Source of the DNA: Torpedo marmorata | Taxonomy: Eukaryota | Direction of reading: 5' to 3' | Assembly: GCA_977017645.1 (NCBI GenBank) | Contig: OZ360253.1 | Location: 29,698,001 to 29,762,000 of the forward strand | DNA length: 64,000 bases | Shown here: piece by piece, positions 4,901 through 13,628 of the stretch | Numbering within the stretch: the stretch's first letter is position 1 | Layout: each line of letters starts with the position of its first letter | Translations under genes and position numbers: made by a program | The notes under the pieces: model-generated | The model's database searches: none | Seen by the model: the letters and a program-made list of their open reading frames with translations, nothing else | What the model was told of the DNA's origin: nothing

Positions 4901-4964
4901 GAATTATTGAAATGGAAAGGCTATTGATAATTTGGTTAGACGATCAAAATCAGCATAATATGCT

Positions 4965-5632
4965 TGTCACATGTAGATAGGGTGGTGAAGAAGGCATTTG
5001 GTATGTTGGCCTTCATAAATCAGAGTATTGAATATAGGAGTTGGGATGTCATGTTGAAGTTGTATAAGGCATTGGTGAGGCCAAATTTGGAATATTGTGC
5101 GCAGTTTTGGTCGCCGAATTACAGGAAGGATATAAACAGAATAGAGAGAGTGCAGAGGAGATTTACAAGAATGTTGCCGGGGTTTTTGGGTTTGAGTTAT
5201 AGGGAAAGGTTGAACAGGCTGGGACTTTATTCCCTGGAGCGTAGAAGGTTGAGGGGTGATTTGATAGAGGTATTTAAAATTATGAAGGGGACAGATAGAG
5301 TCAATGTGGACAGGCTTTTTCCATTGAGAGAGGGGAAGATTCAAATAAGAGGGCATGGATTAAGATTGAAGGGGGAAAAGTTTAGAGGAAACATGAGGGG
5401 GAATTTCTTCACTCAGAGGGTGGTAGGAGGGTGGAACGAGCTTCCGGCCGAAGTGGTAGATGCAGGTTCAATTTTAATGTTTAAGGAAAAGTTGGATAGG
5501 TATATGGACGAGAGAGGTGTGGAGGGTTATGGGCCGGGTGCGGGTCAGTGGGACTAGGTGGGAGAATGTGTTTGGCATGGACTCGAAGGGCCGAACTGGC
5601 CTGTTTCTGTGCTGTAAATGTTATATGGTTAT
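4965..5632 (+). mobile_element. CR1/HER1-like LINE 3' fragment
   Basis: [19 protein letters not shown]...LERRRLRGDLIEVFKIM...FFTQRVV..WN followed by the CR1 3' tail GGGCCGAA..GGCCTG. Confidence 0.92.
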
Positions 5633-6069
5633 AAAAGGCTCAAAGTCTTTTCAATGATTTAAAAGCTGCACATGCAGCAAGTGAAGGTGATTGTGATGAA
5701 GAATTTGTTGTGATGAGGGGTTGGTTCAATCGTTTCAAAGTGAGGGCAAATCTACATAATATTAAAGTGCAAGGTGAAGCAGCGAGTACCGATGTAAGTG
5801 CTGCGGGTGATTTTCCTGAAATGTTGAAAAAAATTATTGAGGAGGAAGGTTATTTGCCAGACCAAATATTTAATGTTGACGAGACTGTCTTATTTGGGAA
5901 AAAAGTGCCTGAAAGGACCTACATTTCGAAATGAAAAAAGTGCACCAGGGCATAAGGCATCGAAGGATAGGCTAACGTTATTGCTTGGGGGTAACGCATC
6001 CGGGGATTTCAAGCTCAAGCCTTTGCTTGTGTAGTGCTCTCTAAATCCGAGGGCACCTCGCCGTATCAT

Positions 6070-6719
6070 TGTAAAAGCCGTAGGCTCGTTAACTTACCGT
6101 TGTTGCGGCGCTCCGATGTCTCGTCGGGCCTTGGAGCGCTCGCGTTGTTCTGTAGGCCGTCCTCGGAGTGCTCCGAGGCCACGTCGGGCCATGGAGCGCT
6201 CGCGTTGTTCTGTAGGCCGTCGTCGGCCCGTTCTTTGCTCTGCGCATGCGCAGGATTGCCGACGGGCGCATGCGCAGTGTGGAGTGACGTCATTGTGCGC
6301 GTTGCAGTCTGGGAAATGTAGTATGCGCGGGGTAGGATGCGCAGTGGTTTAGGAGCTAATGGGCATGCGCAAATCAAGAATAGAGGGAGAGAAAAAGGAA
6401 AGGAATAAGATGATTGGAGGGTGAGTGAGGTCTCCACATCTTTATTGACCGTTTTATAGCGTTTTTATATCGTTTAACGTCATTTTACAGTGTTTCATAT
6501 TGTTTTGGAATTGTTTAAAGAATAATTTAAAGGAACACTTCATACATCATTTCAAGAACTGTTTATATTAAAGTCATTGAAGATTACTGCAAGTCATGTG
6601 TGAAAATAAAGGTTTTGAACATATTGGACTTTGTTAGTAAATTAATTAAAACGCGTCAAAGACAAGTATCTCACTTAGCCTCCAGGTGACTATTGGAAGA
6701 TCGAAGTCACCGTAATATA
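6070..6719 (+). repeat. 5' LTR of the BEL/Pao element
   Basis: TGTAAAAGCC...CGTAATATA. About 12 substitutions against the 3' LTR by hand count. AATAAA near 6605. Confidence 0.93.
6241..6292. promoter_or_regulatory. NRF1-like palindromes and a full CRE in the CpG-rich LTR U3 (repeated in the 3' LTR at about 11628-11679)
   Basis: TGCGCATGCGCA at 6241-6252, GCGCATGCGCA at 6266-6276 and TGACGTCA at 6285-6292. Confidence 0.55.
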
Positions 6720-7163
6720 GTCAATAAAGAGCTGGCTGTTTGGAACAGAAGTTTGAAAGAAAGAAGATAGAAAAAACTCTCTGTGCTTTGGACTGATATA
6801 AAATGGTGGCCATCTTGGAGATGCCTCGAGTTGGGGGCAGTTTATAATCCACTTCCATCTGCCATGAATAACAGCCAGAGAGGGATTTAAAGCTTCAAAT
6901 CTTATAGTAAAGTGTCCTATAAATACGTTGGAGAAACCATTTTTGGAAAATCAGTGATATTAGTGACGGATGTTGTGGTTGAAACTCGTTTGTGGATTGC
7001 AGCACATTACAGTCATTTGAAGTGGTAGGCATAAGTCTGTGGACTCCTTCTGTGTATCTTTAGCAAGTAAGAACACAGATTGGAATTGCTGCCGCTGGTC
7101 CATTGGGGACTGTTGTTTGGCTAGTGTTGTGTATGCTTGAAGGAGAGGAACAAGACGAGTAAA

Positions 7164-10100
7164 ATGGCCGCAGCAGCCACTGATACAGCAGCTACTGATA
7201 TATCAGCAGCTGACGCAGCAACCGCTGATGTTGCTGTTGAGGACCAACGTATTGAAGACATGAAGGTTTCGGATATTAAAGAAGAATTGAAGCGACTGAA
7301 AAAGGACATAAGTGGAAATAAAAAGGTTCTTATCGAAAGATTGAAGCTGGCAAAGGATGAAGAGGCAGCTTCATTAGTTGAACAAGAAGATAACTTGGAA
7401 ATGGCTGAAATTGTGTCAACAAATGATGAAGAAATTAAAGTGGTTGAAGATGCAAAGGATATACAATTTGAATTGGATAAAGAGGTAAGTATGAAGACAG
7501 CATATGAACTGCAGGACGACATACAAGCAAGTGACAGTGTCTCAAATGCTGTAAGCAGGAGAAGCAAAAGAAGTTCTGGTTCAAGCTCCAGAGTTTCTCG
7601 TACTTCAAGTTCTGCATCGTCACGTACAAAGGTTGATGTTAAATTGGCCGCTCTTCTTGCACAACAAAAAACGCTTAAGGATAAGTATATTTTGGAAGAA
7701 GAGGAGGAGCAGCTAAGACAAAAGGAGGAGCAGCTAAAGGAGCAGCTAAGACAAAAGGGGGAGCAGGTAAAGGAGCAGCTAAGACAAAAGGAGGAGCAGC
7801 TAAAGGAGCAGCTAAGACAAAAGGAGGAGCAGCTAAAGGAGCAGCTAAGACAAGAGGAGGAGCAGCTAAGACAAAATGAGAAGCAGCTAATGAAGCAGCT
7901 AAGACAAGAGAAGGAGCAGCTAAGGAAGAGAAAAGAACAGCAGGAGCTGGAAGCAAACACTGCTATTGCCAAGGCAGAAAAGAAAGCAATAGAAGGCTCA
8001 ATGGTATCTGGTGCTAGCAGTAAATTATCTAAATTGTCTGATAATAAAAGGTCATATTTTAAAAAGGAGTCACAGGAAAAGAAACCAACCAAAAGGATAG
8101 ATATTTTAGAACCAAGGATACAAAACTTACATATACAAGGACAAACCTTTCAAGAGCATATTGGTATCGAGTCACATGTACCAATAATAACATCTGAAAG
8201 CAAAGCTGCGGCTTGGGTTCGGTCAAACGAAGCAACTTCTTTGTTATATGAGTCAAGCATCAGAAATATGGAAGAAACTACACCAGTGAGGTTTCCAGAT
8301 ACATTGCATGCAACAAGAGACGGTGAACAGAGCAATGTATTGTCGTCCAAGGAAAGACAAAATGAAATTGCTGCATCATTGTTTCAATTACAGTCTCTCT
8401 CTTCTTTACCCAAGAAAGAGATACAAACTTTTGATGGTGATCCACTTCAATATCAATCATTTATGAGATCTTTCAAACGCAATATTGAAGATAAATGCCA
8501 AGATCGTGATGAATGTCTTTATTATTTGGAAATGTTCACAAAGGGACATCCAAAAGAACTGGTAAAAAGTTGTAAACAAATGTCTTCAGGAAGAGGATTA
8601 GACAAAGCTAAGGATTTATTGGAACAATATTTTGGCAACAAGCATCGAATTGCTTTAGCTTATATGGATAAAGCTCTTAAATGGACATCAATAAAACAAA
8701 ATGATGTAAAGGCTCTGCAAGAGTTTACTCTGTTTTTAAGAGGATGTTGTAATGCTATGGAAGAAATCAATAGTATTCGTGAGCATGATGTGCATAGTAA
8801 TATGCGAATCATTTTAGAAAAATTACCTTACAAGGTATGGGATAGATGGAGAAATTTGGCTTGTGATTTACAAGTAAATTACGGTCGAAAAATTACCTTA
8901 AAGGATTTGGTAAATTTTCTTGAACGACAGGTGTACGTTGAAACAGATCCACTATATGGAAATACCAGAGATAATTCAATGGGCAAAGATGTAAAGAAGT
9001 CTAACACACAGTCTAGTCCGAAATTGAAAAGGAGTACTTTTGCTACTAATGTGCAAGTTATAAGTAAAGAAAATGACAAAGTAAATAAGGAAAAGGAAAG
9101 TTTGCCTAATGAAAAGAGTTGTTTGTTCTGTAAAGGTGGACATGCTTTGGAAATGTGTTTACAATTGGAAAAGAAGGAACATAAGGAAAAGATCGCTTTC
9201 TTAAAGGAAAATGGAATATGTTTTAGCTGTCTGTGTAAAGGGCACATCAGTAAAAACTGCGAGAAGCGAATTAATTGTAACATATGCAATTTGAAACATC
9301 CTAGAAATTTGCATATCCATAACAGAAACAAGGAATTGGAAAAGGAGCAAACAGAAACAAAGGAAACAACAGAAAATAATGTTATAACCTCGGTTCAGAC
9401 AAGTGGTCTTACTGGGGCCGGGGTGAATAACTGCAAACTTTCAATAGTGCCTGTACAAGTCAAGGCCAAGAAAGGGGATGTAATAGTAAAAACATATGCA
9501 TTTTTAGACCCAGGCAGCACTGCATCTTTTTGCACGGAAGGACTAATGAATAAACTTAATATTCAAGGAAGAAGATCTAGAATTATGTTAAAAACCATGG
9601 GACAAGAAAAGGTTGTTGAAACTAACATTGTTTCAGGCTTAGAGGTTGCTGGATTAGATGACAAAAAATTTTGTGATCTTCCAAGTGTATATACTCAGAA
9701 GACTATGCCTGTGAATGAAGGAAATATTCCTCATCAAAGGGATATCCATCATTTAGCTTATCTGTGGAAGGTTTATTTACCTGAAATTAATTCTGAGATA
9801 GAAATGCTGATTGGTTCAGATGTGCCAAAGGTTTTGGTACCAAAAGAAGTAATAGAGAGTAAAAGGAATGGACCTTACGCTATTAGAACCATGCTTGGTT
9901 GGGCAATCAATGGACCAATGGAAAGAAATAATGATATTGCTCAGGAACAGGTAGCGATAAATATTAATAAAATTTCAGTTGAGAAAGTTGAAGAGTTAAG
10001 CGAAGAGCAAAAAACCGTGAATAAGAAAATCACTTATGAAGAAAAGAAAACAGATCAATGTGAAAATAAATCAATGGTATTTAAAACAACTTTGAAGGAA

Positions 10101-11033
10101 TTAATTTCGTCAGAAATGGATGAAAGTGAAGTATTAGAAGATGTTGCAAATAATACTATTGATCATTCATGTGTAATTGAATCAAATACAGGAATAAAAC
10201 AAGTGACTGAAAACAAATCTGAATGTAGATTTTGTAGTTCAGAGATTACAACAGACAAAGCTAATGAAGAATTATTGCAATGTGATGTAAAACTGGAGAA
10301 CACAGAAAATTGTGCTGATGGAATAAAGAATAATGTGAATGATAATTTAATGCAATTGAATTCAGAGAACAAAATGTTGAAAGGGGAATTGGAAATATTA
10401 GATAATCAAGAAAACAGTAAACAGAAAGATTTAATTGTAAGTAAAACTCGCAAAGTCAGAAAGCGGAAGAAAAGAATAACTGCTGAAGAAATGAATACAG
10501 TTATCGAGGAAAGAGATTCAGCATTATCAAAATGTAAAAGGTTGGAGGAAGAGATTAATGTTTTAAAAGAGAACAAGTTATTTGTTAATAACACAAAACA
10601 ATTAACAATACAGAAAGAATGTGATATTGCATTGCAAAAATGTAACAAACAAGATGAAGAAATTAAAAAATTTCAAGTTTGTCACAACAGGATTGACAAT
10701 GGAAATATCAATGTATCACATGATATTTTGACTTCGGATCAAATTATTAATTTCTCGGAAAGAACTGAGACCGATTTGAAAGTTGCGAAATTGGACTTAG
10801 AATTGCAGGAAAGAGCAATAGAAACCAGAGTGGTTAAACAGACCTGTTTAAAATCGAAAGGATCAGATAAATATTCAAATTCTAATTCTAAGAGTTTAAA
10901 TTCTTCACATGAGAAGTGGAATACTGAAGAAAGGAATAAAGTGAAACGACGTGCTGAAGAAGTGCCTCATGTTAAATTCAAAAGGAAAACTGTATCTATT
11001 TTGTCTGAAGAAGATTTGAGGTTTACTGATTGA
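7164..11033 (+). CDS. BEL/Pao SAP-Gag-protease polyprotein with a MIPOL1-like coiled-coil C-terminal extension
   Basis: First ATG at 7164 (aaaATGG). SAP-like MKVSDIKEELKRLKKDISGNKKVLIERL; BEL Gag LPKKEIQTFDGDPLQY; three Cys/His knuckles; protease YAFLDPGST and GPYAIRTMLGWAINGP; tail includes RITAEEMNTVIEERDSALSKCKRLEEE. Confidence 0.88.
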   Translation: MAAAATDTAATDISAADAATADVAVEDQRIEDMKVSDIKEELKRLKKDISGNKKVLIERLKLAKDEEAASLVEQEDNLEMAEIVSTNDEEIKVVEDAKDIQFELDKEVSMKTAYELQDDIQASDSVSNAVSRRSKRSSGSSSRVSRTSSSASSRTKVDVKLAALLAQQKTLKDKYILEEEEEQLRQKEEQLKEQLRQKGEQVKEQLRQKEEQLKEQLRQKEEQLKEQLRQEEEQLRQNEKQLMKQLRQEKEQLRKRKEQQELEANTAIAKAEKKAIEGSMVSGASSKLSKLSDNKRSYFKKESQEKKPTKRIDILEPRIQNLHIQGQTFQEHIGIESHVPIITSESKAAAWVRSNEATSLLYESSIRNMEETTPVRFPDTLHATRDGEQSNVLSSKERQNEIAASLFQLQSLSSLPKKEIQTFDGDPLQYQSFMRSFKRNIEDKCQDRDECLYYLEMFTKGHPKELVKSCKQMSSGRGLDKAKDLLEQYFGNKHRIALAYMDKALKWTSIKQNDVKALQEFTLFLRGCCNAMEEINSIREHDVHSNMRIILEKLPYKVWDRWRNLACDLQVNYGRKITLKDLVNFLERQVYVETDPLYGNTRDNSMGKDVKKSNTQSSPKLKRSTFATNVQVISKENDKVNKEKESLPNEKSCLFCKGGHALEMCLQLEKKEHKEKIAFLKENGICFSCLCKGHISKNCEKRINCNICNLKHPRNLHIHNRNKELEKEQTETKETTENNVITSVQTSGLTGAGVNNCKLSIVPVQVKAKKGDVIVKTYAFLDPGSTASFCTEGLMNKLNIQGRRSRIMLKTMGQEKVVETNIVSGLEVAGLDDKKFCDLPSVYTQKTMPVNEGNIPHQRDIHHLAYLWKVYLPEINSEIEMLIGSDVPKVLVPKEVIESKRNGPYAIRTMLGWAINGPMERNNDIAQEQVAININKISVEKVEELSEEQKTVNKKITYEEKKTDQCENKSMVFKTTLKELISSEMDESEVLEDVANNTIDHSCVIESNTGIKQVTENKSECRFCSSEITTDKANEELLQCDVKLENTENCADGIKNNVNDNLMQLNSENKMLKGELEILDNQENSKQKDLIVSKTRKVRKRKKRITAEEMNTVIEERDSALSKCKRLEEEINVLKENKLFVNNTKQLTIQKECDIALQKCNKQDEEIKKFQVCHNRIDNGNINVSHDILTSDQIINFSERTETDLKVAKLDLELQERAIETRVVKQTCLKSKGSDKYSNSNSKSLNSSHEKWNTEERNKVKRRAEEVPHVKFKRKTVSILSEEDLRFTD
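7700..7935 (+). repeat. In-frame coding tandem repeat (33-bp unit built from 12-bp and 21-bp subunits; EQLKEQLRQKE)
   Basis: GAGGAGCAGCTAAAGGAGCAGCTAAGACAAAAG repeated about 5-6 times, plus partial units. Confidence 0.9.
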
Positions 11034-11072
11034 CGTTTTAACTCAGATTTGAAGATGAAAGAACTTTAAAGA

Positions 11073-11252
11073 GACATTGTGATTATTATGGATAATTCAA
11101 CTTCAAGAAACTTCTGGTTACTTGGAAAAATTATTGAGATTTTTCAAGACAAAAGAAGACTTGTGCGTCAAATGTGAATTAAAACTAAGACTGGTTTTCT
11201 AAACAGACCTATTAACAAGGTCTGTCTTTTGTTGGAGACAGAGGAACTTTGA
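11073..11252 (+). pseudogene. Remnant of the BEL/Pao Pol extreme C-terminus (post-integrase domain)
   Basis: DIVIIMDNSTSRNFWLLGKIIEIFQDKRRLVRQM*IKTKTGFLNRPINKVCLLLETEEL*, with one internal stop. Confidence 0.85.
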
Positions 11253-11456
11253 TAAATATAAACTGACTTTATTTGTTGTTGTATATTTCACAGGTTACAG
11301 ACTTTTGTTGAATCAGAGTTATGGTAAACTCTAGATTTATGAAGAAGGAAGAAAGAAGATTTGTATTGTTTTGAATGTTATGGTTATTGTTATTTATAAT
11401 TTATAGTGTAATTATTATTCAAGACATTACGTCTAATTATAATAACTAGGGGCCGG

Positions 11457-12106
11457 TGTAAGAGCCGTAGGCTCGTTAACTTACCGTTGTTGCGGCGCTC
11501 CGATGTCTCGTCGGGCCTTGGAGCGCTCGCGTTGTTCTGTAGGCCGTTCTCGGAGCGCTCCGAGGCCACGTCGGGCCATGGAGCGCTCGCGTTGTTCTGG
11601 AGGCTGTCGTCGGCCCGTTCTTTGCTCTGCGCATGCGCAGGAGTGCCGACGGGCGCATGCGCAGTGTGGAGTGACGTCATTGTGCGCGTTGCAGTCTGGG
11701 AAATGTAGTATGCGCGGGGTAGGATGCGCAGTGGTTTAGGAGCTAATGGGCATGCGCAAATCAAGAATAGAGGGAGAGAAAAAGGAAAGGAATAAGATGT
11801 TTGGAGGGTGAGTGAGGTCTCCACATCTTTATTGACCGTTTTATAGCGTTTTCATATCGTTTAACATCATTTTACAGTGTTTCATATTGTTTTGGAATTG
11901 TTTAAAGAATCATTTAAAGGAACACTTCATACATCATTTCAAGAACTGTTTATATTAAAGTCATTGAAGATTACTGCAAGTCATGTGTGAAAATAAAGGT
12001 TTTGAACATATTGGACTTTGTTAGTAAATTAATTAAAACGCGTCAAAGACAAGTATCTCACTTAGTCTCCAGGTGACTATTGGAAGATCGAAGTCACCGT
12101 AATACA
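11457..12106 (+). repeat. 3' LTR of the BEL/Pao element
   Basis: TGTAAGAGCC...CGTAATACA with TG..CA termini; same length as the 5' LTR. Confidence 0.93.
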
Positions 12107-12698
12107 CCTCTTCCCGTTATTTGGAAGGCAAATCAATGCAAAGGCTTGGGTTTCAATTGCCATCTTTGAAGTTTGGTTCTTGAACCATTTTGTCCCTGCT
12201 GTTGAACGTTATTGCTTGGCCAAGAAAATTCCTTTCAAGATTCTCCTTGTGCTTGACAACATACCCGGACATCCAAGTACTTTAGATGACCTTCACCCCA
12301 ATGTAAATTTACCCCCCCCCCCAACACCACATCGGTACTTCAGCCAATGGATCAGGGAGTCATAGCCTCCTTTAAGGCCTATTATTTACAGCGGACCTTC
12401 TCACAAGCAGTCAGGGCTACCCCAGATGATTTGATCTTAAGTGAGTTAACATCTACGATGCCATCAAAAATATTGCTGATTCTTGGGATGAAGTGAAGCA
12501 GTCAAATATGAAAGGAGTGTGGAACAAATTGTGCCCCCAATTCGTGCATGATTTTCAGGGGTTTACAGCTGACGACATCACCGAAGCCAGGCAAGCTGTG
12601 GTTGATATTGGTAATCAACTGCAGTTAGACATCAGTGAAAATGATGTCATAGAGTTACTCGACTCCCATGCCGAAGAACTGACCAATGAAGACCTTAT

Positions 12699-13628
12699 AA
12701 GACCTCCAACAGTGTTTCAATGATTTTCTCATACTATGTCTTGTTTAAGCTTAGAAAAAATTAGATATCATGTATTTGATTCATCGGTGAAATTTGAAGA
12801 TACATGGCGACCTTTTATGTCTTATTTTCATTTCATATGATGTAAATGTTTCTAATGTGAATAGATGTATTTACTCTTCCAGATGAGATATAGTCTTACC
12901 TTTGTTTTTTGATTTCAGAATCAGAATCAGTATTGTCATGAACAAGTCATGAAATTCGGTGTTTTGCGGCAGCATCATAGTGCAATTAACATTCATATTA
13001 TAACCATCTTACGACATTACTATATTAAAAAAAAAAAAATAATAGTGCACGAAAAGTAAGGCAGTGTCTTTGGTTCATTGATTATTCAGGAATCTGATGG
13101 CAGCGGGGAAGAAGCTGTCCTTGTGCCGTTGAGTGCTCGTCTTTAGGCTCCTGTACCTTTTTCCCGATGGTAGCAGAGTGAAGGGGGCATGGCCTGGGTG
13201 GTGGGGGTCTTTGAGGACGGAGGCTGCTTTTTTAAGACACCGCCTCATGTAGATGTCCTCGATGGAGTGAAGTCTGGTGCCTGTGATGTCACAGGCCGAG
13301 TTAACAACCCTCTGGAGTTTACTCTTGTCCTGAGAGTTACGGTAGGAACCAAAAACTACAAAATATATGTAACCCTCAGGATAAGCTGCTCAGCTGGTTG
13401 TTTTTTTTGATAGTTGTTTATTTTTTTTAATTAAAGTAGGTTAGGTGGAGCGGTTTTTTTTATATAATACTTTTGATGTTTTTTTTTTCATTTTCACCCA
13501 TTGCAGTGGAGTTTATACTGTTTCAAGTTTTATCTCAACATATGTGATATTGTATTTTCAGTTTCGTTCCCTTTTCTTCATTGTATTGTATTTCTTATAA
13601 AAACCAATAAAAAAGATTGAAAAAGAAA
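12699..13628 (+). mobile_element. 5'-truncated L1-like 3' end with an 11-bp TSD, containing a nested Rex/Babar fragment (about 12916-13330, minus strand)
   Basis: TSD GAAGACCTTAT at 12688-12698 and 13629-13639; LSLEKIRY motif; AATAAA tail. The nested piece ends in (TCAGAA)n. Confidence 0.8.

Follow-up and report, generated by a model that had tools for sequence, protein, structure and literature searches.

The genome of the ray Torpedo marmorata contains a highly amplified family of long terminal repeat (LTR) retrotransposons in which most of pol is replaced by a mosaic of spliced host sequences. Here, we describe this family from a copy at positions 6070–12104 of a stretch of 64,000 nucleotides, referred to throughout as the window (GenBank assembly GCA_977017645.1, contig OZ360253.1, positions 29,698,001 to 29,762,000 of the forward strand), and from related copies elsewhere in the genome. 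With good confidence, we regard the element as a non-autonomous BEL/Pao retrotransposon that carries spliced BRCA1, MIPOL1 and Elongin A (ELOA) sequences fused in frame to Gag and protease, that bears a junction likely derived from a circular RNA (circRNA), and that was likely propagated by co-packaging with a helper under probable selection for an open frame. Only slightly less firmly, we hold that an LTR retrotransposon reverse-transcribed a host circRNA inside its particle and joined it in frame to BRCA1 sequence on one side and Elongin A sequence on the other, and that the chimera outgrew its helper tenfold to occupy about 2% or more of the 6.2-Gb genome.

Host genes that contributed to the cargo

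The cassette that follows the protease is composed of spliced cDNA of BRCA1, MIPOL1 and ELOA, each in its native frame; the nearest proteins to these donors come from rays, which marks the host as a batoid. A preliminary description of the window had recognized MIPOL1 by its resemblance to the human sequence, and this homology is real: the best matches of the tail of the open reading frame (ORF) were shark and ray MIPOL1 proteins (E 1.8e-16, 52%), the eukaryotic-named hits among the 120 matches listed were all MIPOL1 or carried the MIPOL1 Pfam pair, a protein atlas agreed on MIPOL1 (0.96), and the identity of 22/27 given there over RITAEEM..RLExE holds for one human MIPOL1 isoform. A Pfam scan of the tail, with a library that lacks MIPOL1 families, gave weak coiled-coil matches and nothing specific. 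Within the tail of about 350 aa, however, MIPOL1 accounts for positions ~10428–10832 only; positions 10011–10430 derive from BRCA1 and 10832–11045 from Elongin A. Residues 12–150 of the tail align with ray BRCA1 (61%, E 7e-46, 155 bits, where 50 shuffles reached 24.6 at most) and represent approximately aa 241–382 of that protein, encoded by two host exons joined without an intron. MIPOL1 exons Ef (3' part), Eg and Eh follow at 10428–10687, spliced and in native frame, and then exon Eb, with an 81-nt internal deletion, and part of exon Ec at 10688–10832. Residues 279–346 align with ELOA, of which part of exon 4 and part of exon 6 remain and within which the ORF ends (stop codon 11031–11033).

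The origin of these pieces is best seen in older copies. Ray MIPOL1 was used as a query on the host genome (G000), and the flanks of intronless copies were then searched. Many of these copies resemble the host gene more closely than the copy in the window does, and the flanks of older ones matched Elongin A (E 7e-71, Pfam Elongin_A) and BRCA1 (E 5e-56). With the host exons mapped (MIPOL1 on C40, ELOA on C41, BRCA1 on C61), introns are missing from every cargo piece that spans more than one exon, so the mRNA-type capture of MIPOL1 that had been proposed is borne out by alignment to the host locus. Identity to the host exons is mostly 90–98% in older copies and 70–86% in the window. The older layout consists of the N-terminus of pol, optionally ELOA exon 3 with the start of exon 4, two to four BRCA1 exons, MIPOL1, the end of ELOA exon 4 through exon 8, and the end of integrase. 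Cargo content varies among sublineages and is longer in the older ones, one of which runs in frame from ELOA into IARS1 (PDB match, E 7.5e-78; L084:6738–7412, L190, L193, L194); NDC80 is probably a fifth donor, in the IARS1-bearing sublineage, judging from one PDB match (E 6e-8) beside an atlas result of generic coiled coils alone. The amplified lineage has lost the Elongin_A domain and much of each donor, and its BRCA1 piece carries neither RING nor BRCT. No ELOA-only element with an intact middle of exon 4 occurred among the 83 matches of the ELOA search, and annotated fusions to the element were not found in other species by profile search and cluster look-up, which gave ordinary MIPOL1 (8 checked).

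Two observations concern the donor sequences themselves. MIPOL1 exon Ed is separated from ELOA exon 4 by an unassigned linker of ~15 nt (L085:7085–7107, L111:7421–7441). The public electric-ray BRCA1 model (P0282) has no RING Pfam listed, and its N-terminus (aa 1–180), presumably retrotransposon gag-like sequence in the RING position, is probably an annotation chimera.

The permuted MIPOL1 junction

The MIPOL1 exons in the element stand in the order Ef (3' part)-Eg-Eh followed by Eb-Ec-Ed (start), a permutation that had been overlooked when the spliced host sequence was correctly noticed. In the best-preserved copies the host donor of Eh (ACAG|gt) and the acceptor of the upstream exon Eb (tag|CAGG) are matched to the nucleotide. 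In the window this back-splice-type junction lies at 10687/10688, with 21/30 matches to Eh and, over the next 30 nt, 20/30 to Eb against 7/30 to the colinear exon Ei. All 12 older copies examined have the junction, as do 19 of 20 copies drawn from the first 41 position-ordered hits on C1 and four of four copies from random stretches. Its host-exact 18-mer occurs 260 times in the genome and the window variant 91 times, compared to 0 for a reversed control. At Eh|Eb both CAG triplets are retained and the two sides have no more than AG in common, a pattern better explained by splicing than by microhomology. Exons Eb to Eh comprise 780 nt, are stop-free and are a multiple of three in length, and the permuted junction is therefore in frame through splice phase.

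A join of this type at true splice sites, accompanied by circle-resident exons alone, is in sequence terms the defining mark of a putative circRNA-derived retrocopy (Dong et al., 2016, PMC4897178). The MIPOL1 piece was thus likely copied from a circular RNA. The introns that flank Eb-Eh in the host gene, 50 and 62 kb long, hold 11 inverted-repeat pairs of more than 200 nt. An exonic circ-Mipol1 is reported from mouse (PMC9888537); a search for 'circMIPOL1' by name found no paper.

Several points weigh against a circular template. A tandem DNA duplication or trans-splicing yields the same junction, and in this animal circMIPOL1 is a putative RNA, predicted from genomic DNA. The same flanking introns also carry 37 direct-repeat pairs, and since the capture covers less than a full turn of the circle, it contains no rolling-circle repeat that would prove circularity. 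Under a linear-RNA origin, the identical splice-exact junction would have come from exon repetition by trans-splicing or from exons Eb-Eh having been duplicated in tandem in an ancestor, with the history of capture otherwise unchanged. However, the 320-kb host MIPOL1 region contains one copy of each exon, the exon repeat is absent from four shark and ray MIPOL1 proteins, neither Ea, Ei nor any other sequence from beyond Eb-Eh occurs in the element copies mapped, and such junctions commonly arise by back-splicing (PMC4897178). We consider the linear origin unlikely and favor the circular template.

Helper elements, copy number and phylogeny

The window element lacks pol, as had been observed: the ~340 aa after its protease contain no reverse transcriptase (RT), RNase H or integrase motifs, and what remains of pol is a stop-containing C-terminal remnant of integrase at 11071–11252. 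Pol-bearing BEL copies were found by a search for PF05380, and 11 of the 15 fetched have ORFs of 2018–2134 aa. The motifs YxDD, D.FGP and SDNGTNF, none of which occurs in the window ORF, are all present in the helper ORF. Similarity between helper and window is ~90–94% up to position 10010, stops there, and restarts at 11071 with 84–96%; 1,060 nt of cargo stand where the helper has ~3.2 kb of pol. Both kinds of element have LTRs, gag and protease (PR) in common. Regarding the assignment to BEL/Pao, the window copy encodes its protease in the same ORF as a Gag that has DUF1759 and zinc knuckles, and lacks the RT-RNase H (Peptidase_A17)-integrase part, which is present in the ~90–94% identical PF05380 helper. 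As this copy is without pol and its close relative has it, the window element is a non-autonomous derivative, in agreement with the preliminary description. A MIPOL1-type tail is absent from the autonomous relatives.

The cargo family is far more numerous than its helper. In exact genome-wide counts, a MIPOL1 21-mer occurs 17,101 times, of which the host gene accounts for one, and a helper pol 21-mer 1,634 times; it weighs against a literal reading of this ratio that each count depends on the conservation of its word. First-look candidate numbers (38,222 and 91,143) are not copy numbers and are replaced by these exact-pattern counts. At ~6 kb per copy, the cargo family would make up at least ~100 Mb of the genome. 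A sample of 400 kb of random sequence held four cassettes, one full pol and two short pol pieces. In 320 kb of MIPOL1 introns lie four cassettes (L063, L064, L072 and L079), three of them in sense and one in antisense orientation; none lies in 120 kb around ELOA. The 20 position-ordered copies are all of the short-cassette type, like the window copy, and have the same breakpoints, one of them being truncated. The arrangement of copies includes a head-to-tail array in which the MIPOL1 21-mer occurs five times at intervals of 4,964 nt (L264, C1:1,498,298–1,518,174) and a short-cassette copy nested within an old cargo-bearing copy (L115).

These data also bear on the trivial explanation of ordinary processed pseudogenes of L1/CR1 type, or of an assembly chimera, within a dead element. 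CR1-like LINEs are indeed abundant in the genome. However, the cassette substitutes for pol and does not interrupt it, a poly(A) tail is absent, and target-site duplications (TSDs) flank the element as a whole (10 of 11 scorable copies, a helper among them, have TSDs of 5 bp). An assembly chimera is further contradicted by contigs from three public samples that span most or all of the cassette. Common breakpoints together with copy number refute both variants, to which we assign practically no probability. A point against the reading proposed here is that the window copy itself has no clean TSD beside it: CACCT abuts the 3' LTR, but lies 11 nt off the 5' LTR.

The cargo tree is ladder-like and leads from host exons over old and intermediate copies to the clade of the window. 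In the protease tree, helpers are nested within the short-cassette lineage (support 100/97), and a single clade of all 33 cargo rows is rejected (approximately unbiased test, p-AU 9e-5). An element without pol is unable to regenerate it, and hence the nested position of the helpers means that gag and PR must have been exchanged between both genome types, which is the expected outcome of co-packaging. The short type has ~140 nt of integrase sequence that are missing from the old copies aligned.

Selection on the reading frame

The Gag-PR-cargo fusion had been described as a single in-frame ORF, and reading frames are kept across the joins of other intact copies too. Translation continues in the native frames over the heterologous joins (pol-BRCA1 in two forms, pol-ELOA, ELOA-BRCA1, BRCA1-MIPOL1, MIPOL1-ELOA and ELOA-IARS1), and the deletions that made the short cassette likewise keep native frames. 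Among 193 fixed differences over 312 cargo codons in 44 copies no stop is found, compared to a mean of 9.7 expected in simulation, where none of 2000 runs was stop-free, and to ~6 expected from the 3.1% rate of private changes. Of the private indels, 77 of 292 are in frame. An automatic count of shared indels (13/39 in frame) was discarded as unusable, since the aligner had split deletions (-17/-28 = -45; -80/-1 = -81) and one ELOA reference was mis-joined; that the frame is retained is shown instead by the single ORF and the stop count at fixed differences.

The ratio of nonsynonymous to synonymous substitution rates (dN/dS) was determined for the cargo by comparing host codons with the commonest codon per column in 26 close relatives of the window. 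It is 0.73 (p = 0.09 against 1), with segments ranging from 0.51 to 1.14. The gag core and PR, compared between old and young copies, have ratios of 0.33 and 0.34 (p < 1e-5). No stops and a dN/dS not different from 1 imply selection for an open frame, with little or none on the amino acids; the cargo protein as such is probably not under selection. This conclusion is weakened by the limited power of the cargo estimate (~400 codons; the BRCA1 part reaches 0.51 with p = 0.055), by 52 of the 412 cargo codons that derive from the mis-joined ELOA reference, and by the fact that the low values of gag and PR may partly have been imported from the helper by recombination.

The preliminary description had likened the element in structure to acutely transforming retroviruses and suggested that its protease could release the cargo. 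In these retroviruses a Gag-host fusion stands in place of pol, propagation depends on a helper and the cargo protein is under selection. By analogy, the protease might release a putative BRCA1/MIPOL1/ELOA coiled-coil peptide that would aid particle assembly or counter host defence. A passenger of this kind would accord with the survival of the open frame and of native frames through many switches and deletions, with the ~10:1 excess of the cargo family over the helper, with a dN/dS slightly below 1, and with the position of the cargo at the spot where RT would be cleaved off. Yet the ratio is indistinguishable from 1, the cargo has shrunk by deletion with the loss of the Elongin_A domain, its BRCA1 piece has no RING or BRCT domain, and its content differs by sublineage (IARS1 and likely NDC80). 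A functional, oncogene-like passenger is therefore unsupported and appears unlikely, and the resemblance of the ray element to these retroviruses is limited to the Gag-host fusion and helper dependence, as an amino acid constraint like that on retroviral cargo is undetectable here.

Proposed origin

Selection for the open frame and exchange with a helper can be combined in the following scheme. RT would have switched templates among RNAs co-packaged in a particle, over several rounds, with a 780-nt circMIPOL1 of exons Eb to Eh as one template. RT and integrase would be provided in trans by the helper, the element would make its own Gag and protease, and gag and PR would have been repeatedly exchanged between helper and cargo genomes. 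The open frame would be kept for a reason acting in cis, Gag-PR being translated from the same ORF as the cargo: an early stop would create a long 3' untranslated region, and thereby nonsense-mediated decay, or would weaken cis-packaging by the element's own Gag. Microhomology, given here without a random control, amounts to 6 nt at the pol-ELOA and 5 nt at the pol-BRCA1 junction. Less favorable to template switching, the joins BRCA1-MIPOL1, ELOA-BRCA1 and MIPOL1-ELOA show little microhomology or none, the ~15-nt linker being located at MIPOL1-ELOA, and the old junctions were compared with a present-day helper that is only about 75% identical.

Relation to known systems

LTR-mediated retroposition is known in metazoans, including the capture of host mRNAs by BEL/Pao in insects (Tan et al., 2016, PMC5131818). 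Among the cases reported there, the Drosophila Pao element BATUMI carries two genes, the mosquito element BEL18_AG one and the mouse 'Super' retrocopy four; others are from zebrafish and chicken. As in the ray element, partial spliced mRNAs replace internal ORFs between LTRs, several genes can be joined, and further non-autonomous retroposition occurs; the ray copies agree with an LTR-mediated retrocopy in that spliced, partial host mRNA lies between LTRs and lacks poly(A). The cases of Tan et al. (2016) are young individual retrocopies, whereas the ray family numbers more than 17,000 copies, has passed through a long series of subfamilies and has kept its Gag-PR-cargo ORF. The word 'circular' does not occur in the main text of that paper, in contrast to the back-splice-type junction found in the ray.

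The mouse circRFWD2 pseudogenes (33 copies) are enriched for LTRs in their flanks, and their mechanism was termed 'mysterious' (Dong et al., 2016, PMC4897178). They share with the ray element a non-colinear genomic exon junction, the absence of poly(A) and the association with LTRs. However, the ray junction is located inside a defined element, in the interval between protease and integrase remnant, is in frame, and has an identified helper. The maize element Bs1 is likewise an LTR element with three host-gene fragments and a chimeric ORF, but belongs to a plant and is described as a domesticated chimeric gene for which the accessible parts of the sources report no circRNA, as opposed to a mass-amplified family (PMC13317346, PMC5131818). 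Taken singly, LTR-mediated capture, chimeras of several genes and circRNA pseudogenes are not new; their combination and scale were not found in the literature, where our search yielded no description of the ray family or of any LTR element that had amplified a back-splice junction within it. A term search of the accessible text of a preprint on shark genome size (10.1101/2025.06.08.657570) gave no mention of the element.

The route by which circRNAs return to genomes was left open in the accessible text of Dong et al. (2016), and the ray case supplies a defined LTR element, a helper and graded subfamilies. Together with the splice-exact junction, these make the route of re-entry testable. One captured circRNA fragment would have been amplified more than 17,000-fold in a giant genome. 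If true, this would provide circRNA-derived pseudogenes with a direct mechanism, and the copies would record, as fossils, which circRNAs and mRNAs of the germline had entered retrotransposon particles. MIPOL1 heads the retrocopied genes of cartilaginous fishes in a preprint of 2026 (10.64898/2026.06.26.734816), where donor lists are explained by formation bias and selective filtering, with no mention of LTR capture or circular RNA in the accessible text; the family described here may explain the top rank of MIPOL1 among shark and ray donors. Junctions borne by transposable elements can swamp circRNA and retrocopy pipelines. SUDS3, SDF2L1, SLU7, ZNF276 and other leading donors in the same preprint may be similar captures by transposable elements.

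Further features of the element and its surroundings

All features of the element lie on the forward strand. The LTRs (6070–6717 and 11457–12104) are identical at 637 of 648 positions (98.3%). The 5' LTR runs from TGTAA to CCGTAATA and terminates, as in the helper family, in TA instead of CA; TG...TA termini are common to cargo and helper copies (loci L119–L173). A short purine-rich tract occupies the polypurine tract position at 11448–11456, ahead of the 3' LTR. The single ORF for Gag, aspartic protease and cargo covers 7164–11033 and encodes 1289 aa from its ATG (stop to stop 7125–11033, 1302 aa). It contains a SAP domain (PF02037, 7251–7346, E 1.6e-7), the BEL/Pao Gag core (DUF1759, 8430–8852, E 2.5e-7), zinc knuckles with two matches to CX2CX3-4HX4C (9120–9260) and the aspartic protease (9420–10010, with LDPGS at 9504 and a weak profile match). 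A 33-nt tandem repeat of variable length (QLRQKEEQLKE) is present in gag at 7666–7961 and occurs in the helper too.

The element is inserted into what we take, from its translation, to be a remnant of a Tigger/pogo-like DNA transposon (5635–6069 and 12105–12723). Upstream, the 3' end of a CR1/L2-type LINE is found at 4940–5557, and between 18270 and 57970 the window holds a dispersed repeat family of ~9–10 copies with the look of a tRNA-type SINE (families D3–D6 and D9).

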